In this document: positions 20,860 to 34,500 of the stretch, one piece after another
Position numbering within the stretch: position 1 is the stretch's first letter
How the letters are laid out: the number at the start of each line of letters is the position of its first letter
DNA from: Spirochaetia bacterium
GTDB taxonomy: Bacteria > Spirochaetota > Spirochaetia > WTKD01 > G963693115
Direction: 5' to 3'
DNA length: 64,000 nt
Assembly: GCA_965226055.1 (NCBI GenBank)
Contig: CBDDCA010000003.1
Coordinates: forward strand, 19,954 to 83,953
The notes under the pieces: generated by a model
What the model was told of the DNA's origin: nothing
The model's database searches: none
The model's input: only the letters and a program-made list of their open reading frames with translations
Position numbers and translations under genes: made by a program

Positions 20860-21003
20860 AATAACCCTCTTAATGTTTTTTATATAGTATACTATAATAT
20901 TAAAAAAAAGTTTTTAGTAAATACAATAGGTAAATTAATTATATACAATACTACTGTAATTCCATATAATGATATGATTACCACATAATAAAGGAATAAT
21001 GGT

Positions 21004-21453
21004 ATGAGAAACATTTTGTTGTTATGGTGTATGTTTGCACCGTTTTTATTTAGTTGTGTGTCTCTGTCTGAATCTGATATAGCTATTGATTATGGAGAAC
21101 AAAGATTGATAACGAAAGAAGGGGTATCAGTAAATGAACTGTACATACTTACTCATGAATTTTTACTGTTTCATATAAGTGATGCCGAAGTGAGCGTAGA
21201 GTTTTTTGATAAAGAAGATGGCAAAATAATAGGCAATTTCAATGTGAAAATAGTTAATGACAGTGCCTACACAGATTCTGTAGTGTACTATAACTATACT
21301 TATAATATTGATATAAGAGATGGCCAAGTACATGCTAGCATTAAAGGGATAGCAAGGCAGGTTGATGCTACGCTCATTCAGTTTTGTACTGATTTTCTCG
21401 ATGCTTTAGAGGAGTATATTCATAGTCATTCTATTATAGATAGGTTTGTATAG
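21004..21453 (+). CDS. Putative lipoprotein (hypothetical)
   Basis: 149-aa ORF with a signal peptide and lipobox-like FLFSC. Confidence 0.5.
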   Translation: MRNILLLWCMFAPFLFSCVSLSESDIAIDYGEQRLITKEGVSVNELYILTHEFLLFHISDAEVSVEFFDKEDGKIIGNFNVKIVNDSAYTDSVVYYNYTYNIDIRDGQVHASIKGIARQVDATLIQFCTDFLDALEEYIHSHSIIDRFV

Positions 21454-21561
21454 TTTTTTCTGTAAAATGTTGCACATGCAGATTAAAGTATTGTAAAGTG
21501 CATTAGTATGCGATACAGCAAAAAAGAGCAGAAAAACAAAAAGGTGGAATTTCACTATCTC

Positions 21562-21603
21562 ATGTATACCTTTGGTAGCACTCAATTCAGATATTTTATG
21601 TAA
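21562..21603 (+). promoter_or_regulatory. Conserved 13-codon upstream ORF (MYTFGSTQFRYFM*), copy 1
   Basis: ATG...TAA frame conserved in three copies of the family's 5' leader module. Confidence 0.3.
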
Positions 21604-21661
21604 TTAGTACTTAAAATTGAGGATAGCAGGCTATTTTTTAAAAAAAATAGGTGTTCTGCTA

Positions 21662-21690
21662 TTGCGGTTTTTTTTTTTTTATTGTATAAT
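21662..21690 (+). promoter_or_regulatory. Putative sigma70-type promoter TTGCGG-N17-TATAAT with T13 homopolymer spacer
   Basis: -35-like hexamer at 21662-21667, T13 at 21668-21680, -10 TATAAT at 21685-21690. It lies 53 nt upstream of the SD+ATG at 21743. Confidence 0.45.
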
Positions 21691-21742
21691 ATAGCTATAT
21701 TTATAAAAAATTCAAGTATTAAATTTGAAAAAGGAGCAAAAT

Positions 21743-21915
21743 ATGAAAAAAAATCGTATATGGTTTGTTATTTTATGTTTTCAGCGATGTTTTTTAATGC
21801 TACCGCTTTTAAGCAAGATTTAGAAGCATGGGGGAAACACATAGGCAAAAAAAGAGTATTTAAGGCAAATATGTTTTATGGGAGTGGAGTAAAAACACCA
21901 CCAACATGGCATTAA
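21743..21915 (+). pseudogene. Deletion remnant of a DUF285 (BspA-like) lipoprotein gene
   Basis: SD+ATG and the signal-peptide-like start MKKNRIWFVILCF match [11 protein letters not shown] of the 29379 gene. The 3' part, in another frame, encodes ...FFNATAFKQDLEAWGKHIG...GSGVKTPPTWH, matching the C-terminus of the 29379 gene. An A8 tract sits at 21746-21753. Confidence 0.6.
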
Positions 21916-21983
21916 AATATAGAGGTAGGGATGGTAGAACTTTCTTACACTTTGAAAAAGAATAATTTTAATAGGAGGCAAAA

Positions 21984-24900
21984 ATGAAATTATTGAATAT
22001 ATCATATATATTTTTTATCGTTTTTGTGTTTTCACTTTTCACTTGTGAAAATGACAATGTAGGAAGCGGAGGAAGTAACAACGCTATTGATTTAAGTAGT
22101 GTGGCATCTCCCCCGCTAGATGTAACGAATATTACTAACAGTATTGTGAATGGTAATATTGTGTTAAAGTGGCAAGTTCCAGCCCTTACTACTAATCTTA
22201 AAAGGAAAGATGGCAAAACACTCACAAAGGCAGATATATCTTACAAAGTGTATCGAGTAGTAAAGGGAGCAAAGAGCCGAACAATAGCCCAGATTAAAAC
22301 AGTGGATAAAAAACCGATAACAGTAGCAAAGGGAACAACAAGTACAACTATAAGTAATCTTACTGGAAATACAACATACGAGATAGTAGTGCAGGCAGTA
22401 AATTCTACAGATACCACAAAAGTCTCTACAGGAGTGAGAGCAGAAGTTACTACTTTATCCTCTGCAACTGCTCCCGCAGAAGTAAGCACTATTACTGCAG
22501 GCAGTACAACGGCTAGCAGTACAGTTATATCATGGACAGCCCCAACGCTTGATACTAGCCACAAGAAAGCAGACGGCACAGCACTGACAAAGGCAGATGT
22601 GTCTTACAAAGTGTATCGAGTAGCAAAGGGAAGCGATGAGCGAACAGTAGCACAAATAAAATCAGCAGACACAAGCCCGCTAGCAGTAGCAAAGGGAACA
22701 ACAAGTACAACTATAAGTAACCTTACAGGCAGTACAACATACGAGATAGTAGTGCAGGCAGTCAATTCTACTGATGCCACAAAAGCCTCTATAGGCAAGA
22801 GAATAGAAGTTACTACTACTGTTATAATAAATCAAGCCACCGCACCCGCAGAGGCAAGCACTATTACTGCAGGCAGTACAACAGCTAGCAGTACAGTTAT
22901 ATCATGGACAGCTCCAACGCTTGATACTAGCCACAAGAAAGCAGACGGCACAGCACTGATAAAGGCAGATGTATCTTACAAAGTGTATCGAGTAGCAAAA
23001 GGAAGCGATGAGCGAACAGTGGCACAGATTAAGACAGCAGATACAAGCCCGCTAGCAGTAGCAAAGGGAACAACAAGTACAACTATAAGTAACCTTACAG
23101 GGAATACAACATACGAGATAGTAGTGCAGGCAGTAAATTCTACTGATACCACAAAAGCCTCTATAGGCAAGAGAATAGAAGTTACTACCACGAACCCTGC
23201 AACTGCCCCCGCAGAAGTAAGTGCTATTACTGCAGGCAGTACAACGGCTAGCAGTACAACGCTATCATGGACAGCCCCCACGCTTGATACTAGTCACAAG
23301 AAGGCAGACGGCACAGCACTGACAAAGGCAGATGTGTCTTACAAAGTGTATCGAGTAGCAAAAGGAAGCGATGAGCGAACAGTAGCACAGATTAAGACAG
23401 CAGACACAAGCCCGCTAGCAGTAACAAAGGGAACTATAAGCAAAACTATAAATAACCTTACAGGCAGTACAACATACGAGATAGTAGTGCAGGCAGTCAA
23501 TTCTACCGATATCACAAAAGCCTCTACAGGCAAGAGAATAGAAGTTACTACTCTAAACCCCGCAAATGCCCCAACAGAAGTAAGCACTATTACTGCAAGC
23601 AGTACAACAGCTAGCAGTACAGTTATATCATGGACAGCTCCAACGCTTACTACTAGCCATAAGAAAGCGGACGGGGGAAGGCTTACAACGGCAGATGTAT
23701 CTTACAAAATATATCGAGTAGCAAAGGGAAGCAAAGCCCGAACAGTAGCAGAGATTAAGAGAGTAGACCCGACTCCACTAAAAGTAACAAAGGGAACAAC
23801 CCGTATAACTATAACAAACCTTAATTATAATACCGCCTATGAAATAGTAGTACAAGCAGTCAATTCTACTGATACTACAAAAGTCTCTACAGGAATACGA
23901 AAAGAAGTTACTACTAATCGTATACCTAATATAGCCACCGCCCCAACAGAAGTAACCAATATCACCGCAGGCAGTACAACGGCTAGCAGTACAGTTATAT
24001 CATGGACAGCCCCCACCCTAACAAACAGTCACAAGAAAGCAAACGGACAAAATCTTACAACGGCAGATGTATCTTACAAAATATATCGGGTAGCGAAGGG
24101 AAGCGATGAGCGAACAGTAGCCCAGATTAAAACAGCAGACACGACTCCGATCGCAGTAGCAAAGGGAACAACAAGAACAACTATAAGTAACCTTACAGGA
24201 AGTACAATATACGAGATAGTAGTGCAGGCAGTCAATTCTACCGATACCACAAAAGTCTCTACAGGAGTGAGAGCAGAAGTTACTACTCTAAACCCCGCAA
24301 ATGCTCCCGCAGAAGTAAGCAATGTTACTGCTGGAAGTACTACCGATAAAAGAATAGAAGTAACATGGCAAGCACCAACGCTTACTAATGATCACAAGAA
24401 GGCAAACGGAGAAACACTAACAACGGCAGATGTATTTTATAAAGTGTATCGAGTAGCAAAAGGAAGCGATGAGCGAACAGTAGCAGAGATTAAAACAGCA
24501 GACACAAGCCCGTTAGAAGTAGCACGGGGAATAACTACTGTATTTATACCCAACCTTACAGGCAGTACAACATACGAGATAGTAGTGCAGGCAGTCAATT
24601 CTACCGATACCACAAAAGCCTCTACAGGAGTGAGAGCAGAAGTTACTACTACTAACCCTGCAAATGCTCCCGCTGAAGTAAGCAATATTACTGTAGGCAG
24701 TACAACGGCTAGCAGTACAACGCTTTCATGGACAGCCCCCACGCTTGATAATAGCCACAAAAAAGCAAACGGAGAAACACTTACAACGGCAGATGTGTCT
24801 TATAAAGTGTATCGTGTTGCAAAAGGAAAGAATGCCCGAGATGTAGCAGAGATTAAGACAGCGGATAAAAGCCCGTTAGCAGTAGCAAAGGGAACTATAA

Positions 24901-27900
24901 GCAAAACTATAAATAACCTTGCAGGCAGTACAACTTATGAGATAGTAGTACAAGCAGTCAATTCTACTGATACCACAAAAGCCTCTACAGGAGTGAGAGC
25001 AGAAGTTACTACTTTATCCTCTGCAACAGCCCCCGCAGAAGTAAGCAATGTTAGTGCAGGAAGCACAACTGCTAGCAGTACAGTTATATCATGGACAGCC
25101 CCCACGCTTGATAATAGCCATAAAAAAGCAGACGGTACAGCACTGACAAAGGCAGATGTGTCTTACAAAGTGTATCGAGTAGCAAAGGGAAGCGATGAGC
25201 GAACAGTAGCAGAGATTAAGACAGCGGATAAAAGCCCGCTAGCAGTAACAAAAGGAACTATAAGCAAAACTATAAATAACCTTACAGGCAGTACAACATA
25301 CGAGATAGTAGTGCAGGCAGTCAATTCTACCGATACCACAAAAGTCTCTACAGGCAAGAGAATAGAAGTAACAACCTCAAACCCCGCAAATGCCCCCGCA
25401 GAAGTAAGCAATGTTAGTGCAGGAAGCACAACTGCTAGCAGTACAGTTATATCATGGACAGCCCCAACGCTTGATACTAGCCACAAGAAAGCAGATGGCA
25501 CAGCACTGACAAAGGCAGATGTGTCTTACAAAGTGTATCGAGTAGCAAAGGGAAGCGATGAGCGAACAGTAGCAGAGATTAAGACAGCGGATAAAAGCCC
25601 GCTAGCAGTAACAAAAGGAACTATAAGCAAAACTATAAGTAACCTTACAGGCAGTACAACATACGAGATAGTAGTGCAGGCAGTCAATTCCACCGATACC
25701 ACAAAAGTCTCTACAGGAGTGAGAGCAGAAGTTACTACTTTATCCTCTGCAACTGCTCCCGCAGAAGTAAGCAATGTTAGTGCAGGAAGCACAACTGCTA
25801 GCAGTACAGTTATATCATGGACAGCACCAACGCTTGATACTAGCCATAAGAAAGCAGACGGCACAGCACTAACAAAGGCAGATGTGTCTTACAAAGTGTA
25901 TCGAGTAGCAAAAGGAAAGAATGCCCGAGATGTAGCAGAAATTAAGACAGCGGATAAAAGCCCGTTAGCAGTAACAAAGGGAACTATAAGCAAAACTATA
26001 AGTAACCTTACAGGCAGTACAACATACGAGATAGTAGTGCAGGCAGTCAATTCTACCGATACCACAAAAGCCTCTACAGGCAAGAGAATAGAAGTTACTA
26101 CTCTAAACCCCGCAAATGCCCCCGCAGAAGTAAGCAATGTTAGTGCAGGAAGCACAACTGCTAGCAGTACAGTTATATCATGGACAGCCCCCACGCTTGA
26201 TAATAGCCATAAAAAAGCAGACGGTACAGCACTGACAAAGGCAGATGTGTCTTACAAAGTGTATCGAGTAGCAAAGGGAAGCGATGAGCGAACAGTAGCA
26301 GAGATTAAGACAGCGGATAAAAGCCCGCTAGCAGTAACAAAAGGAACTATAAGCAAAACTATAAATAACCTTACAGGCAGTACAACATACGAGATAGTAG
26401 TACAAGCAGTAAATTCTACTGATACCACAAAAGTCTCTACAGGAGTGAGAGCAGAAGTTACTACTTTATCCTCTGCAACTGCTCCCGCAGAAGTAAGCAA
26501 TGTTAGTGCAGGAAGCACAACTGCTAGCAGTACAACAATATCATGGACAGCCCCAACGCTTGATAATAGCCACAAGAAAGCAGACGGCACAGCACTAACA
26601 AAGGCAGATGTGTCTTACAAAGTGTATCGAGTAGCAAAAGGAAAGAATGCCCGAGATGTAGCAGAGATTAAGACAGCAGATAAAAGCCCGTTAGCAGTAA
26701 CAAAAGGAACTATAAGCAAAACTATAAGTAACCTTACAGGCAGTACAACATACGAGATAGTAGTACAGGCAGTCAATTCTACCGATACCACAAAAGCCTC
26801 TACAGGCAAGAGAATAGAAGTTACTACTACCAACCCCGCAAATGCTCCCGCAGAAGTAAGCAATATTACTGCAGGCAATCTTATTGCAGGCACTCCCTAC
26901 AGCACTGGTATTACTATATCATGGACAGCCCCAACGCTTGATAATAGCCACAAGAAAGCAGATGGCACAGCACTGACAACGGCAGATGTATCTTACAAAG
27001 TGTATCGAGTGGCAGAAAGATGGAATAACCCCCGAACAGTAGCACAGATTAAAACAGCAGACACAAGCCCGCTAGAAGTAACACAGAATACAACAAGTAT
27101 AAATATAACTAATCTTGTTTTGTACGAAACATACGAGATAGTAGTGCAGGCAGTCAATTCTACCGATACCACAAAAATCTCTACAGGAATAAAGAAAAAC
27201 ATTACTCTCAATAGTAACGCCACTGATCCCGCAGAAGTAAACAATGTTACAGGAACTCCCGCTGATAAATCTGCAAGAATATCGTGGGAAGCTCCAACAC
27301 TCAAAAGCAGTCACAAAAAATCAGACGGAACACAACTAACAACGGCAGAGGTATCGTATAAGGTATATGCAGCGAGAAGGAAAAGAGATGAGTACGGAGT
27401 TTATTACAAAGAACGCACAGTAGCACAAATTATAGCAGGTGGTCACCCAATTAGTTTACCCGCAGGAACTACAAGTACGAATATTAATACTATTGCAAAA
27501 GATATAGTTTTTATACCTAAAAATAAATACGAGATAGTAGTGCAAGCAGTAAATGTCACCGATACGTCAAAAGTCTCTACAGGAGTAAGAATAGAAATAA
27601 CTACCATTTCTACTAATCACGCCACCGCCCCGCCAGACCCCCGCAGTGTTTTAAGCTATGCAGCAAAGCCATCTAATAGAGCAGTAACAATATCATGGAT
27701 AACTTCAACGCTTACTAATAATCATAAGAAACCAGACGGCACGAAATTAGCGAAAACAGATATAGATTACTATGTATATCATTTAGAAAAGGCCAGCATT
27801 TCTAAAACAGTAGAACAAATTAAAAACAGAAAGCCAATCCCTATACTAGTACTCAATGGAGCTACAAATGTAGTTATTTCTAATCTTAAGCCCAATACTA

Positions 27901-28295
27901 CCTATGAGGTAGTAGTGCAGGCAGTCAACTCTATTGATACAAGAAAAAAATCTACAGGCATACGAATAGAAGTTACTACTTTAGTAACGCTTAATGAATT
28001 AGTATTTAAGGTAAAGGGAAATAAAGTTACTTATGAATGGGTACATTACCCTGAAACTGCAAATATTGAAATAGAACAAACGCCATACGCAACAGGTAAA
28101 TATTCAATAAGTCCCAACCTCACAGCAGACACTGGACTGTCCTTTGATACAAAAACAGGCAGGATATACGGACAACCCACGAAATCGCTTAAAACCTTCA
28201 ATGCTCGTAAATACTACACAGTAAAATTTACTGCAAACGATGGACGAATAGCACGGGGTACAATTCTCTTAAAAGTAACAAGAAATAACTACTAA
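21984..28295 (+). CDS. Giant surface lipoprotein with 16 tandem FN3-like domains and a C-terminal Ig-like (He_PIG-type) domain
   Basis: 2103-aa ORF. AGGAGG SD, signal peptide and lipobox (FSLFTC). The roughly 121-aa units have an FN3-like pattern (...SWTAP...Y.VYRV...L...[11 protein letters not shown]...). The C-terminal SPNLTADTGLSFDTKTGRIYGQP pattern is typical of putative Ig domains. Confidence 0.8.
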   Translation: MKLLNISYIFFIVFVFSLFTCENDNVGSGGSNNAIDLSSVASPPLDVTNITNSIVNGNIVLKWQVPALTTNLKRKDGKTLTKADISYKVYRVVKGAKSRTIAQIKTVDKKPITVAKGTTSTTISNLTGNTTYEIVVQAVNSTDTTKVSTGVRAEVTTLSSATAPAEVSTITAGSTTASSTVISWTAPTLDTSHKKADGTALTKADVSYKVYRVAKGSDERTVAQIKSADTSPLAVAKGTTSTTISNLTGSTTYEIVVQAVNSTDATKASIGKRIEVTTTVIINQATAPAEASTITAGSTTASSTVISWTAPTLDTSHKKADGTALIKADVSYKVYRVAKGSDERTVAQIKTADTSPLAVAKGTTSTTISNLTGNTTYEIVVQAVNSTDTTKASIGKRIEVTTTNPATAPAEVSAITAGSTTASSTTLSWTAPTLDTSHKKADGTALTKADVSYKVYRVAKGSDERTVAQIKTADTSPLAVTKGTISKTINNLTGSTTYEIVVQAVNSTDITKASTGKRIEVTTLNPANAPTEVSTITASSTTASSTVISWTAPTLTTSHKKADGGRLTTADVSYKIYRVAKGSKARTVAEIKRVDPTPLKVTKGTTRITITNLNYNTAYEIVVQAVNSTDTTKVSTGIRKEVTTNRIPNIATAPTEVTNITAGSTTASSTVISWTAPTLTNSHKKANGQNLTTADVSYKIYRVAKGSDERTVAQIKTADTTPIAVAKGTTRTTISNLTGSTIYEIVVQAVNSTDTTKVSTGVRAEVTTLNPANAPAEVSNVTAGSTTDKRIEVTWQAPTLTNDHKKANGETLTTADVFYKVYRVAKGSDERTVAEIKTADTSPLEVARGITTVFIPNLTGSTTYEIVVQAVNSTDTTKASTGVRAEVTTTNPANAPAEVSNITVGSTTASSTTLSWTAPTLDNSHKKANGETLTTADVSYKVYRVAKGKNARDVAEIKTADKSPLAVAKGTISKTINNLAGSTTYEIVVQAVNSTDTTKASTGVRAEVTTLSSATAPAEVSNVSAGSTTASSTVISWTAPTLDNSHKKADGTALTKADVSYKVYRVAKGSDERTVAEIKTADKSPLAVTKGTISKTINNLTGSTTYEIVVQAVNSTDTTKVSTGKRIEVTTSNPANAPAEVSNVSAGSTTASSTVISWTAPTLDTSHKKADGTALTKADVSYKVYRVAKGSDERTVAEIKTADKSPLAVTKGTISKTISNLTGSTTYEIVVQAVNSTDTTKVSTGVRAEVTTLSSATAPAEVSNVSAGSTTASSTVISWTAPTLDTSHKKADGTALTKADVSYKVYRVAKGKNARDVAEIKTADKSPLAVTKGTISKTISNLTGSTTYEIVVQAVNSTDTTKASTGKRIEVTTLNPANAPAEVSNVSAGSTTASSTVISWTAPTLDNSHKKADGTALTKADVSYKVYRVAKGSDERTVAEIKTADKSPLAVTKGTISKTINNLTGSTTYEIVVQAVNSTDTTKVSTGVRAEVTTLSSATAPAEVSNVSAGSTTASSTTISWTAPTLDNSHKKADGTALTKADVSYKVYRVAKGKNARDVAEIKTADKSPLAVTKGTISKTISNLTGSTTYEIVVQAVNSTDTTKASTGKRIEVTTTNPANAPAEVSNITAGNLIAGTPYSTGITISWTAPTLDNSHKKADGTALTTADVSYKVYRVAERWNNPRTVAQIKTADTSPLEVTQNTTSINITNLVLYETYEIVVQAVNSTDTTKISTGIKKNITLNSNATDPAEVNNVTGTPADKSARISWEAPTLKSSHKKSDGTQLTTAEVSYKVYAARRKRDEYGVYYKERTVAQIIAGGHPISLPAGTTSTNINTIAKDIVFIPKNKYEIVVQAVNVTDTSKVSTGVRIEITTISTNHATAPPDPRSVLSYAAKPSNRAVTISWITSTLTNNHKKPDGTKLAKTDIDYYVYHLEKASISKTVEQIKNRKPIPILVLNGATNVVISNLKPNTTYEVVVQAVNSIDTRKKSTGIRIEVTTLVTLNELVFKVKGNKVTYEWVHYPETANIEIEQTPYATGKYSISPNLTADTGLSFDTKTGRIYGQPTKSLKTFNARKYYTVKFTANDGRIARGTILLKVTRNNY
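22095..27985 (+). repeat. Tandem 363-bp coding repeats (16 units)
   Basis: The period is visible in both protein and DNA. The central units (about 24960-26830) share stretches of more than 200 nt of perfect identity, for example 25098-25315 versus 26187-26404. Confidence 0.9.
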
Positions 28296-28451
28296 TACAT
28301 ATATATTGTATATAATTAAGTAGTGTAATGATGGTAGAATTTGTATATTTTTCTCCTAATAAATGCAGATATTAGAGTATAATTTTTTCTATCATCTTTA
28401 CACTTTGAAAAAGAATAATTTTTGAATAGGAGGCTGCAATGAAATTATTGA

Positions 28452-29018
28452 ATGGTATCATATTATATTTTTATCGTTCTTGTGTTTTTACTGTTTACTT
28501 GCGAAGGCAACAAGGTAGGTAGCACTAAAGGTAACCCTGCCACCGCACCGCCAGAGGCAAGCAGTGTTACAGGAAGTCCCACCGATAACAGTGTAAGGGT
28601 ATCATGGACAGCTCCAACGCTTGATAATAATCATAAGACAGCAGACACAAGCCCGCTAGCAGTAGCAAAGGGAACAACAAGTATAAATATAACTAATCTT
28701 ACAACTACTACCACCTATGAAGTAGTAGTACAGGCAGTCAATGCAACAGATACCACAAAAGTCTCTACAGGAATAAAAACAGAAGTAACTACTCTTAGTT
28801 CTCTTAATTTAGTTTTGAAGAAAGGCAGTACTATAGAAACAGAAGTAAACATAAGGATAAATTCTGTTGGTGTTAATGTTCGTTCAATAGTAACACCGAA
28901 TGTAAGTGGTACATTTTTTATTTCTCCTAATTTAACGAAAAATACTGGAATTTTATTTAATACTAATACTGGCATACTATCGGGGTTAGTACATTTAAGT
29001 AGTATTTTACTATATTGA
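28452..29018 (+). pseudogene. Degraded mini-paralog of the FN3 lipoprotein family
   Basis: The 188-aa ORF retains a lipobox (LLFTC), one internally deleted FN3 unit and a truncated Ig-like tail. The SD-proximal ATG (28439) is out of frame because of a 1-nt indel relative to the 21984 gene. Confidence 0.55.
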
Positions 29019-29089: not shown

Positions 29090-29197
29090 TTACCGAAAGC
29101 AAAAGAGCTAATTTTTATAAAATCGGTAAGTATTTATTGCAGGTACATATAAAATAACTTCTACTAAGCATATTTGAGAAAGGAGTTTTGTTATCTC

Positions 29198-29239
29198 ATG
29201 TATACCTTTGGTAGCACTCAATTCAGATATTTTATGTAA
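29198..29239 (+). promoter_or_regulatory. Conserved 13-codon upstream ORF (MYTFGSTQFRYFM*), copy 2
   Basis: AAAGGAG lies 12 nt upstream of the ATG. Same frame and stop as copies 1 and 3. Confidence 0.3.
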
Positions 29240-29296
29240 TTAGTACTTAAAATTGAGAATAGAAGGCCATCTCTTTAAAAAAACAGGTGTTTTGGT

Positions 29297-29325
29297 ATTG
29301 CGTTTTTTTGTATTTCTTTGTATAT
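29297..29325 (+). promoter_or_regulatory. Putative promoter TTGCGT-N17-TATATT with interrupted T-tract (T7)
   Basis: Homologous position to the T13 and T15 promoters. Here the spacer reads TTTTTTGTATTTCTTTG. Confidence 0.4.
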
Positions 29326-29378
29326 TATATCTATCTTTATTCAAAATTCAAGCGTTAAGTTTGAAAAAGGAGAAAAAT

Positions 29379-31190
29379 ATGAAAACAAATCATATATATT
29401 TTATTATTTTTAGTGTTTTTATTATTTTGATAAGTGCTTGTGAAGCTGAGATTCCGACTATTGATAACAGTAGGAATGATGCTTCCTCTGCGACTGCACC
29501 AGCAGAGGCAAGCAATGTTACAGGAAGCCCAACCAATACAAGTGCAAGTATATCCTGGCAAGCCCCAACGCTTACAAGCAGTCATAAGAAAGCAGACGGA
29601 ACACAGCTGACAAAGGCAGATGTATCTTACAAAGTATACCGAGTAGCAAAAGGAGCAAAGAGCCGAACAATAGCACAGATTAAAGAAGCGGACACGAAAC
29701 CGATTGAAGTAGCAAAGGGAACAACAAGCACAAGTATAACTAATCTTACTAGAAGTACGACCTATGAAATAGTAGTACAAGCAGTCAATGCCACCGACCC
29801 CACAAAAGTCTCTACAGGTATACGAATAGAAGTAACTACACTTGCCACAAATCAAGCAACAGCACCAGCAGACGTCCGTGTTGTTACAGGAAGCCGCTCT
29901 ACTGATACCAGTACATTGATAAGATGGCTACCCCCAACGCTTGATACTAGCCACAAGAAAGCAGACGGCACAGCACTGACAAAGGCAGATGTATCTTACA
30001 AAGTGTATCGAGTAGCAAAGGGAAGTGATGAGCGAACAGTAGCAGAGATTAAGACAGCAGACACAAGCCCGTTAGCAGTAACAAAGGGAACAACAAGTAC
30101 AACTATAAGTAACCTTACAGGAAATACAACATACGAGATAGTAGTACAAGCAGTCAATTCCACTGCCCCCACAAAAGTCTCTACAGGCATACGAATAGAA
30201 ATAACTACCCTTGCCTCTATTAGCATGAGAGCAAAGCAACAAGGAAGCAGCAGTACATTTACTACTTTGTCAGCAACAGCACAAGGAAAAGACGGAACAA
30301 CAGAAATTACTCCTATTGTAATGGAAGTAACGCCCAGTAGTGTAGTAAGCAGTGGTACATTTTCAATCAGCCCCAGCCTAACAGAAAATACAGGCATTTC
30401 TTTCAATACCAGCAACGGCACAATATCAGGGGTAGCGAAATATATACAGAGTGAAACTACTTATACAATAACCTTTACAGCGACAGACCGCAGAACAGCA
30501 CAGACCACTATTGATATTACTGTAGTGGGAAAATATAGCCCGAAAAGTAGAGCCGATTTAATTACACTAATACAGGATATAATGGACACCGATGACAACG
30601 GGAAAATAGATGATATTGACCCCGACTTAAACATTATTGATACAAGTAATATTACAGATATGACCAAATTATTTAGCACGAGAACAAAATTACATGTATT
30701 TAATGGGGATATATCAAAATGGGATGTAAGTAATGTAACTACTATGTTTACCATGTTTGCCAGTAATAAGGTATTTAATGGGGATATATCAAACTGGAAT
30801 GTAAGTAAAGTAACCGATATGGACGGGATGTTTAATAATGCTATAAAGTTTAATGGGGATATATCAAACTGGAAAGTAGGGAAAGTAACGAATATGGACA
30901 GGATGTTTTTTAATGCAACAGCATTTAATGGTGACATATCAAAATGGGATGTAAGCAAAGTAACGGATATGAGCCTTATGTTTCATCAAGCCTCTGCATT
31001 TAATAAGGATATATCAGACTGGAATGTAGAGAGTGTAACCAATATGTTTGGAATGTTTAATCTAGCGACTTCATTTACTAAAGATTTAGAAGCATGGGGG
31101 GAACATATAGGGGATAGTGTAGATATGTCCTTAATGTTTGATGGCAGTGGAGTAAAGACAACGCCTTCATGGTATAAAAGTGGAAATTAA
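29379..31190 (+). CDS. Surface lipoprotein: 2 FN3-like units + Ig-like domain + C-terminal DUF285 (BspA-like) repeats
   Basis: AAGGAG SD plus ATG at 29379 ([21 protein letters not shown] lipobox); the track ORF start 29253 reads through the leader. Five to six repeats of about 25 aa, FNGDISxW(D/N)VSxVTxMxxMF, are typical of DUF285. Confidence 0.8.
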
Positions 31191-31368
31191 AGTATAGTAA
31201 ACTTGTGTAGGGATGAGAAATATAAAATCTTTATTATATTACTAATGCAGATGTTTGTTATTCTTATCTTTTCAATCATCCCTACACTTTAGTAAGTTTA
31301 TATAAGATGAGAAAACTGTTATTACTATTACAAATTGAGCATATTTGAGAAAGGAGTTTTGCTATCTC

Positions 31369-31410
31369 GTGTATACCTTTGGTAAAACTCCATTCAGATA
31401 TTTTATGTAA
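31369..31410 (+). promoter_or_regulatory. Conserved 13-codon upstream ORF (GTG start, (M)YTFGKTPFRYFM*), copy 3
   Basis: Same length, frame and stop as the other copies. Two codons differ, both nonsynonymous. Confidence 0.3.
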
Positions 31411-31467
31411 ATAGCACTTAAAATTGAGAATAAAAGGCTATTTTTTAAGAAAATAGGTGTTTTGCTA

Positions 31468-31498
31468 TTGCGGTTTTTTTTTTTTTTTGTTGTATAAT
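31468..31498 (+). promoter_or_regulatory. Putative promoter TTGCGG-N19-TATAAT with T15 homopolymer spacer
   Basis: -35-like hexamer at 31468-31473, T15 at 31474-31488, -10 TATAAT at 31493-31498. It lies upstream of the SD+ATG at 31550. Confidence 0.45.
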
Positions 31499-31549
31499 AA
31501 TATATCTGCATCTAAAATGCAAGTATTAAGTTTGAAAAAGGAGTAAAAT

Positions 31550-34500
31550 ATGAAAATAAACCATATATATTTTATTGTTTTTAGTGTTTTTATTATTTTG
31601 ATAAGTGCTTGTGAAGCTGATATCTCGACTAGCTCTAGTAGTGGGGGGAGTACACTATCTTCTGCAACTGCACCATTAGAGGTAAGCAATGTTACAGGAA
31701 ATCCTACCGACAGAAGTATTATATTGAAGTGGCAAGCCCCAACGCTTACAAGCAGTCATAAGAAAGCAGACGGAACACAGCTAACAAAGGCAGATGTATC
31801 GCATAAGGTTTTTATAGTAGAAAAAGGATCACAGAGCCGAACAGTAGAGAATATTATAGCTTTAGATAAATCGCCTATTGAGGTAAAAAAAGGAATAGTA
31901 ACAGTAAATATAAATGATCGAAAGCCCAATACCACCTATGAAATAGTAGTACAAGCGGTCAATTCTACCGATACCACAAAAGTCTCTAAAGGAATGAGAG
32001 TAGAAGTGACTACCCTTACCACTGATCACGCAACAGCACCTCCAGAAGCAAGCGATGTTACAGGAAGTCCTATCGATACAAGTGCAAGAATAACATGGCA
32101 AGCCCCAAATCTTACCGATAGCCATAAGAAAGCAGATGGCACAGCACTCACAACGGCAGATGTATCGTACAAAGTGTATCGGGTAGCAAAGGGAAGCGAT
32201 GAGCGAACAGTAGCAGAGATTAAGACAGCAGATAAGACTCCGCTTGAAGTAGCAAAAGGAACGACAAGTATAAATATAACTAACCTTAATAAAAATACTG
32301 CTTATGAAGTAGTAGTACAATCAGTCAATTCCACCGATACCACAAAAGTCTCTACAGGAGTAAGAATAGAAGTAACTACCCTTGCACAGAATCATGCAAC
32401 CGCACCAGCAGATGCAAGCAGTGTTGCAGGAAGCCCAGACAATGACAGTGTAGCGGTATCATGGCAAGCCCCAAATCTTACCGATAGCCATAAGAAAGCA
32501 GACGGCACACAACTCACAACGGCAGATGTATCTTACAAAGTATACCGAGTAGCAAAGGGAAGCGATGAGCGAACAGTAGCAGAGATTAAAACAGCAGACA
32601 CGACACCGATTGAAGTAGCAAAAGGAACAACAAGCACAACTATAAATAATCTTATTGGAAGTACTACCTATGAAATAGTAGTACAAGCAGTCAATTCCAC
32701 CGACTCTACAAAAGCCTCTACAGGCATACGAATAGAAGTAGCTACCACGAACCCCGCCACTGCACCAGCAGACGCCCGCAGTGTTGCAGGAAGCCCAGCC
32801 GATACCAGCGCAAGAATAACATGGCAAGCGCCAGCGCTTACAGGCAGTCATAAAAAAGCAAACGGACAAAGACTCACAGAGGCAGATGTATCTTACAAAG
32901 TATACCGAGTAGTAAAGGGAAACGGTGTCCGAACAGTAGCAGCGATTAAAACAGCAGATAATAACCCGCTAGCAGTAGCAAAGGGAACAACAAGTACAAA
33001 TATAACCAGTCTTACCCCTGCTACCACCTATGAAATAGTGGTACAAGCAGTCAATTCCACCGATACCACAAAAGTCTCTACAGGCAAACGAATAGAAGTA
33101 ACTACCCTTGCAAATAATCACGCAACAGCACCAGCAGACGCAAGCAGTGTTGTAGGAAGCCCAGCCGATGACAGTGTAGGGGTATCATGGCAAGCCCCAG
33201 CCTTTACAAGTAGTCATAAGAAAGCAGACGGAACACAACTCACAAAGGCAGATGTATATTACAAAGTATACCGAGTAGTAAAGGGAGCAAAGAGCAGAAC
33301 AATAGCAGAGATTAAAGAAGCAGACAAGACCCCGATGGAAGTAGCAAAGGGAACAACAAGCACAACTATAACTAATCTTACAGGAAGTACCACCTATGAA
33401 ATAGTAGTACAAGCAGTCAATTCCACCGACTCTACAAAAGCCTCTACAGGCATACGAATAGAAGTAGCTACCACGAACCCCGCCACTGCACCAGCAGACG
33501 CCCGCAGTGTTACCGCAGGAAGCACGACAGCCTCAAGTACAACTTTATCGTGGACAGATCCAACGCTTACTACTAGCCACAAGAAAGCAAATGGACAAAG
33601 ACTCACAACGGCAGATGTATCGTACAAAGTATATCGTGTAGCAAAAGGAAGGAATGCTCGAACAATAGCAGAGATTAAAACAGCAGATGGGACACCGCTA
33701 GCAGTAGCAAAGGGAACAAAAAGCACAACTATAACTAATCTTACAGGAAGTACTACCTATGAAATAGTAGTACAAGCAATCAACTCCACCGATACTACAA
33801 AAGTCTCTACAGGAGTGAGAATAGAAGTGACTACCACGAACCCTGCCACCGCGCCAGCAGATGCAAGCAGTGTTGCAGGAAATCCAACTGATGACAGTGT
33901 AGCGGTATCATGGACAGCCCCAGCTCTTACAAGCAGTCACAAGAAAGCAGATGGAACGAAACTCACAAAGGCAGATGTATCTTACAAAGTATATCGAGTA
34001 GCAAAGAATGGAGCAAACACTCGATCAATAGCACAGATTATAACAGCAGACAAGACCCCGCTTGAAGTAGTAAAAGGAACAACAAGTGCAACTATAACTA
34101 ATCTTACCCCTAGTACCACCTATGAAATAGTAGTACAAGCGATCAATTCTACCGATACCACAAAAACCTCTACAGGAGTAAGAATAGAAGTAACTACCGA
34201 TAACCTTGCCACCGCACCAGCAGAGGCAAGTAGTGTTACAGGAAGCCCAACCGATACTAGTGCAAGAATAACATGGCAAGCTCCAACGCTTACTACTAGC
34301 CATAAGAAAGCAGACGGACAAAGACTCACAACGGCAGATGTATCTTACAAAGTGTATCGAGTAGCAAAAGGAAGCGATGCCCGAACAATAGCAGAGATTA
34401 AAACAGCAGATAAGAACCCGCTAGCAGTAGCAAGGGGAACAACAAGCACAACTATAACCAGTCTTACCCCTAATACCACCTATGAAATAGTAGTACAAGC

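Follow-up and report, generated by a model that had tools for sequence, protein, structure and literature searches.

Slippage that changes the length of the promoter spacer sets promoter strength at Bordetella fim and Haemophilus hif, and in the promoter of H. pylori sabA a poly-T tract lies upstream of the -35 box. The sabA tract comprises 13 to 19 T (PMC2715451). For N. meningitidis porA, PMC7864442 describes a poly-G tract in the spacer, in which slippage sets promoter strength and 17 nt is optimal, and the same source presents a spirochetal case, Treponema pallidum tp0126 (an OmpW homolog), where poly-G lies between the -35 and -10 boxes, the optimum is again 17 nt, and isolates are internally heterogeneous in the length of the tract (PMC7864442, citing Giacani et al.). 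Finally, the promoter of each vlp lipoprotein gene of M. hyorhinis is described as harboring a poly-A tract (Citti and Wise 1995, as cited in PMC10502178).

The locus studied here lies at 21662-21690 of the window, i.e., the whole 64-kb stretch of DNA that was analyzed, and consists of a -35-like hexamer, TTGCGG (21662-21667), an uninterrupted run of thirteen T (T13; 21668-21680), the bases ATTG (21681-21684, read from the sequence), and a -10 hexamer, TATAAT (21685-21690). These elements, the further module copies of the window and the genes behind them are all on the + strand. T13 and ATTG together separate the two boxes by 17 nt, and the homopolymer, our proposed slippage-prone element, fills 13 of the 17 spacer bases; the TTGCGG-N17-TATAAT element and the tract coordinates given in the original prediction thus agree with the sequence. 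The -10 hexamer matches the consensus at six of six positions, and the -35 hexamer matches TTGACA at three of six, TTG being the conserved part. Because only this TTG is shared, a generic promoter consensus scan returned no site at 21662, and because a G sits at -13, TATAAT is not preceded by a canonical extended -10 (TGn). Between the end of TATAAT and an ATG at 21743 lie 52 nt, including the Shine-Dalgarno sequence (SD) AAAGGAG (21730-21736) that serves this ATG, and transcription would be predicted to start near 21697. By themselves, the hexamers prove nothing, since TTG-N20-TATAAT is no rarer than expected by chance (4 occurrences in the 64-kb window versus 2.9 ± 1.6 in shuffles), and it is the tract and its context that carry the case. 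Homopolymers of at least 11 nt occur only twice in the window, as T13 at 21668 and as T15 at 31474-31488, and the two hold equivalent places in paralogous elements.

Our reading, to which we assign a probability of roughly 0.6, is that T13 is the slippage-prone spacer switch of a sigma-70-type promoter, embedded in a copied lipoprotein 5' module. According to this proposal, the promoter would have the form TTG-N3-N17-TATAAT with the T13 run as spacer, and the genus would have copied the 5' module in front of FN3/DUF285 surface lipoprotein genes. [quoted passage not shown] Since slippage in the spacer would set the state of each module, we propose that every gene behind such a module is switched or dimmed independently and heritably.

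This arrangement resembles tp0126 in that both hosts are spirochetes and in that a homopolymer occupies the spacer before a gene for an envelope protein; 17 nt gives the best expression of tp0126 and is the optimum predicted here. It differs in the tract itself (poly-T of 13 to 16 nt here versus poly-G of about 8 to 12 in tp0126), in the fact that the tract is part of a repeated 5' module for a whole lipoprotein family, and in the host, a distant uncultured lineage whose MutS is less than 40% identical to that of any named relative, the nearest named ones being Spirochaetales metagenome-assembled genomes (MAGs). The loci porA, fim, and hif are single loci with G/C or TA repeats, in contrast to the copied poly-T module found here. 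A sabA-type placement was rejected for T13, whose tract is between the boxes; the position of the sabA tract instead resembles that seen in another poly-T family of this genome, with about 22 members. In its family organization, the module is closest to M. hyorhinis vlp, since both are surface lipoprotein multigene families in which each member has a conserved promoter-leader-signal peptide 5' region and an A/T homopolymer in the promoter. Independent switching of members and variation in the repeat number of the proteins, as described for vlp, would be further shared features. Unlike vlp, the family belongs to a diderm spirochete rather than a mollicute, its proteins are giant FN3/DUF285 lipoproteins, and some of its copies are locked by tract interruptions.

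Two points had escaped the original prediction: the promoter forms part of a repeated 5' module, whose DUF285 gene has been deleted at this locus, and the genome contains about 60 long tracts, T13 among them. The roughly 200 bp around T13 recur at 29196-29396 and 31367-31567 with 86 to 88% identity, giving three module copies in the window and about 17 across the two genomes of the genus; the conserved upstream part (21545-21661) shares 82 to 88% identity with those at 29196 and 31367 as well as with some 14 others in the genus. Full copies share the same order, namely, an upstream block with a palindrome, TATTGC(G/A), the T tract, (A/C)ATTG-TATAAT, a leader of about 45 nt, AAAAAGGAG, the ATG, and a lipoprotein signal peptide, and the module is always found 50 to 60 nt upstream of the SD, ATG, and signal peptide. 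TTG is retained at the -35 position in 13 of the 17 copies, nearly all have a -10-like hexamer, and the promoter arrangement as a whole is conserved in about 13. Downstream, the genes encode lipoprotein signal peptides followed by FN3/DUF285 repeats, the kind of surface cargo typical of contingency loci. Sister promoter 2 (29298-29326) consists of TTGCGT, an interrupted T tract, TTTTTTGTATTTCTTTG (17 nt), and TATATT, and represents a locked version; it precedes a gene for a 603-aa DUF285 and FN3 lipoprotein (ATG at 29379). Sister promoter 3 (31468-31498) reads TTGCGG, T15 (31474-31488), GTTG, and TATAAT, with a 19-nt spacer, and precedes a gene for a 2198-aa FN3 lipoprotein (ATG at 31550).

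The palindrome of the upstream block is A/T rich, has the general form CTATTTTTT-N2-3-AAAATAG, and is found as CTATTTTTT-AA-AAAAAATAG at 21631-21650 and in the sister copies at 31438-31456 and, degenerate, at 29267-29286. It is centered at about -57 relative to the predicted start, some 21 nt ahead of the -35 box. It is retained in 12 of 12 aligned copies, with no covariation and a consensus fold of only -2.5 kcal/mol, and could serve as an UP element or as the site of a dimeric regulator. No known structured RNA was found at 21000-22200 (no Rfam match at E values of up to 1). As the module copies are related by duplication, their conservation is no proof of function. A pattern scan of public metagenome contigs retrieved no further copies; among public genome contigs, a first pattern gave no matches and another matched only the sister MAG OZ244590.1 ("Spirochaetia bacterium"). 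Likewise, no independent assemblies are on record through the neighboring 149-aa protein.

Twelve public runs, none of them an RNA run, contain the stretch, all as Logan contigs, and bear on the slippage that had been predicted for the tract. T13 at 21668 was unchanged in the contigs of runs X1 to X4, which represent four runs from three samples of one study (consensus contigs at a depth of 3 to 6x), so that its variation has to be inferred from its relatives. Sister tract 31474, by comparison, was T13 in X1, T14 in X3 (from the same sample as X1), and T15 in X2; its flanks matched at 100% in these contigs, which showed no further indel and zero other differences over 219 to 321 nt. This directly suggests slippage for the sister promoter, although low-depth homopolymer or assembly error could be behind some of these T13/T14/T15 differences. 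Tracts of paralogous and orthologous modules range from T13 to T16, and the spacers of these relatives fit slippage. A T19 tract of the spacer type elsewhere in the genome (C5:621165) was constant in three runs. In runs X5 to X8, which come from other studies (15 to 60x), contigs end at both tracts of the window, which fits tract heterogeneity but equally fits paralog branching. At the repeated poly-A loci (L044), too, the contigs stop where the tracts begin and are uninformative.

Behind the T13 promoter, the original prediction placed a remnant ORF and, 69 nt further on, the giant gene. A remnant is indeed present, but the 77-aa ORF at 21682-21915 starts inside the -10 box, and the ORF served by the SD is that of 21743-21823, which encodes 26 aa (MKKNRIWFVILCFQRCFLMLPLLSKI*) and which, compared with intact copies, is the decayed start of the lipoprotein signal peptide of the module. 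An A8 run (21746-21753) directly follows its ATG. In a different frame, 21775-21915 preserves the 3' end (46 codons) of a DUF285 (PARCEL-type) lipoprotein gene; what it encodes is 59% identical (E value of 5e-14) to residues 556-599 of the 603-aa protein encoded at 29379-31190. With a 26-aa stub and a 46-codon tail left over, we conclude that the module's own gene lost about 1.6 kb by internal deletion. From the stop of the remnant to the next ATG, at 21984, the distance is 68 nt rather than 69. This ATG opens the gene for a 2103-aa FN3-repeat lipoprotein (21984-28295) with 14 fn3 stretches, a lipobox, ...LFTC, and an SD of its own, AGGAGG (21973-78). Contigs of X5 and X6, from two other studies, join 21845 to 21973 and skip 127 nt at a depth of 107 to 139, which implies abundant paralogs or strains with another junction between the DUF285 tail and the 5' module of the giant gene, here called type A.

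As the DUF285 gene of the module is deleted to remnants, the promoter at 21662 probably reads into the 2103-aa gene. Such read-through is the simplest reading, and the transcript would most likely continue to 21984, since a terminator scan and inspection of the sequence revealed nothing like a terminator on the + strand from 21690 to 21984. Yet a module whose own gene is dead could also have a promoter that is an orphaned relic, i.e., promoter and tract left behind by the deleted gene, which may still fire but would have no selected role, while the giant gene would use its own type-A signals. The reduction of the coding part to stub and tail speaks for this scenario, as do the invariance of T13 in four runs and the fact that the giant gene has, besides its own SD, a separate conserved 5' module, which has only two occurrences in the genome and is shared with the remnant at 28398-28445. 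We nevertheless regard it as unlikely: the coding part just downstream has decayed, while the promoter, the tract, and the leader have stayed intact, with the spacer at the optimal 17 nt, the 68-nt gap before the giant gene (21916-21983) contains no credible -35/-10 pair and thus no convincing promoter of that gene's own, and nothing resembling a terminator separates the promoter from 21984. At 28398-29018, a second type-A 5' module, 87 to 90% identical to 21945-22050, precedes a 188-aa FN3 remnant; the signal peptide is read from 28452, in a frame other than that of the ATG.

A spacer switch further requires that spacer length matter. Among 12 copies, the uninterrupted tracts are T13, T15, T14, T14, T16, T15, T13, and T13, with spacers of 17, 19, 18, 17, 20, 18, 17, and 17 nt, respectively, while the four tracts interrupted by C, G, or A, which cannot slip easily, all have spacers of 17 nt. 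Off-optimum spacers are thus found in 0 of 4 interrupted versus 4 of 8 uninterrupted tracts, a difference that is not significant alone with 12 copies related by duplication. The pattern is suggestive, being the one expected if 17 nt were selected and uninterrupted tracts wandered around it. We also determined the promoter geometry of the genome from 764 upstream regions without long tract or module copy, by scoring TTG before TAnnnT. Spacers of 17 nt (172 versus a background of about 100) and 18 nt (131) were enriched, whereas those of 19 to 20 nt were not. With this peak at 17 nt, the T13 promoter is at the native optimum and copy 3 (T15) is outside it, in line with the prediction that the spacing at 21662 is optimal and the geometry likely that of the ON state.

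One could still imagine a T-rich spacer that is insensitive to length, or a phasing element to the palindrome at about -57, so that tract length would tune expression weakly, as a rheostat, or not at all. The weak -35 (three of six), the invariant palindrome 21 nt upstream of it, and the existence of the second family of about 22 poly-T tracts upstream of the -35, like that of H. pylori sabA (PMC2715451), would all be compatible with this idea. However, the interrupted, locked copies are all at exactly 17 nt and the promoters of the genome sharply prefer the same length, which together argue that spacing matters, and we consider length insensitivity quite improbable.

Finally, an intrinsic terminator or insulator, in which a hairpin at 21622-21662 and the T run would halt transcription from the upstream gene (21004-21453), is very improbable and was rejected as a Rho-independent terminator at 21622-21680, for although the T13 copy can form an RNA hairpin of -17.6 kcal/mol, with U13 beginning 5 nt behind it, this fold is no better than that of shuffles (z = -0.97), the stem is A/U rich and apart from the U run, the site is missing from the list of the terminator scan, the structure is not conserved, with only the 7-bp A/U palindrome shared by the 12 copies (-2.5 kcal/mol, 0 compensatory pairs) and the outer stem broken in sister copies, and copies 2 and 3 carry strong hairpins of their own at a greater distance upstream, immediately behind the preceding genes.

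The slippage-prone spacer switch, which we favor, sits in a genome with an unusual homopolymer landscape. The assembly measures 2.25 Mb with 35% G+C and encodes a Cmk-S1 fusion and BamA, in keeping with a spirochete, and its only congener in the searched collection is the MAG OZ244590.1. The numbers of A/T runs fall steeply up to 10 nt (4 cases), none are found at 11 to 12 nt, and 35 runs of 13 to 30 nt follow; G/C runs stop at 9 nt and resume at 11 to 20 nt. The homopolymer spectrum is therefore bimodal, with about 60 long tracts, and this is a trait of the genus: counted as overlapping matches, T/A runs of at least 13 nt number 164 and 105 in its two genomes and 26 in one family member, as against 0 to 10 in each of 23 other relatives searched. 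By a crude gene call, 45 of 61 long tracts are intergenic, mostly 40 to 106 nt upstream of a start codon. Among the matches listed for OZ244590.1, poly-T runs of at least 13 nt change strand along the chromosome, from + at positions up to about 1.12 Mb to - beyond about 1.22 Mb, which suggests that the tract-bearing genes are co-oriented with replication. The longest tract of the genome under study, T30 at C6:742767-742796, follows ...TATATATATTGTA and adjoins no obvious lipoprotein gene start, the nearest start being 60 nt off on the other strand.

Read in sense orientation, poly-T tracts of the spacer type also occur outside the module. At C5:621165, TTGC-T19-GG-TATAAT precedes a DUF285 lipoprotein gene, and at C4:167442-167457, TTGA-T16-ATTT-TAAAAT precedes a gene for a 565-aa dynamin-like GTPase (GQFSSGKST motif), the only non-lipoprotein gene among the downstream genes translated. 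In the second poly-T family, with its roughly 22 members, the common pattern is ...CCAGTGTA-T(14-27)-AATTTTCAGATATAACAC...GCTATAAT. Here the tract precedes the -35 and lies some 100 nt ahead of the ATG of FN3 and DUF285 lipoproteins of about 1600 aa; the members include C5:246055, 251044, 320404, 503687, and 660788, C6:242801, 527110, and 818031, and others. Three loci carry two tracts each (C4:62832/62955, C5:123067/123187, and C5:450702/450825), a poly-T of 14 to 20 nt located 10 nt upstream of a perfect TTGACA-N17-TAAAAT and, about 100 nt downstream of it, a poly-G of 13 to 15 nt in the first codons, suggesting that a transcriptional and a translational switch act in series.

These observations lead us to a wider and more tentative reading, whose chances we put slightly below even, namely, that the T13 tract is one node of a large, multilayered contingency system, in which about 60 homopolymers in 2.25 Mb, falling into at least three mechanistic classes, would switch dozens of giant FN3/DUF285 lipoproteins independently and in combination and hold neighboring giant genes in opposite states (17 nt, ON; 19 nt, OFF). 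The classes may be poly-T in the spacer (the module, C5:621165, and C4:167442), poly-T upstream of the -35 (about 22 genes), and poly-G in the region coding for the signal peptide (about 30 genes, some with a promoter poly-T in addition).

The homopolymer-in-spacer switch itself is textbook knowledge, and the value of the finding therefore lies in its scale and phylogenetic reach; what stands out here is the great number of lipoprotein genes that repeats would control in an uncultured spirochete. If our reading is true, transcriptional phase variation by spacer slippage would operate not only in Treponema pallidum but also in a deep uncultured lineage of spirochetes, where the mechanism would be used as a copied module for a giant surface lipoprotein family, in a small genome with two further kinds of repeat-based switch. 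For the annotation of MAGs, it would follow that the tract lengths of an assembly are to be taken as snapshots of a population and not as fixed states. For the organism, such a system would point to strong and fluctuating selection on the cell surface, most likely exerted by a host immune system or by phages.
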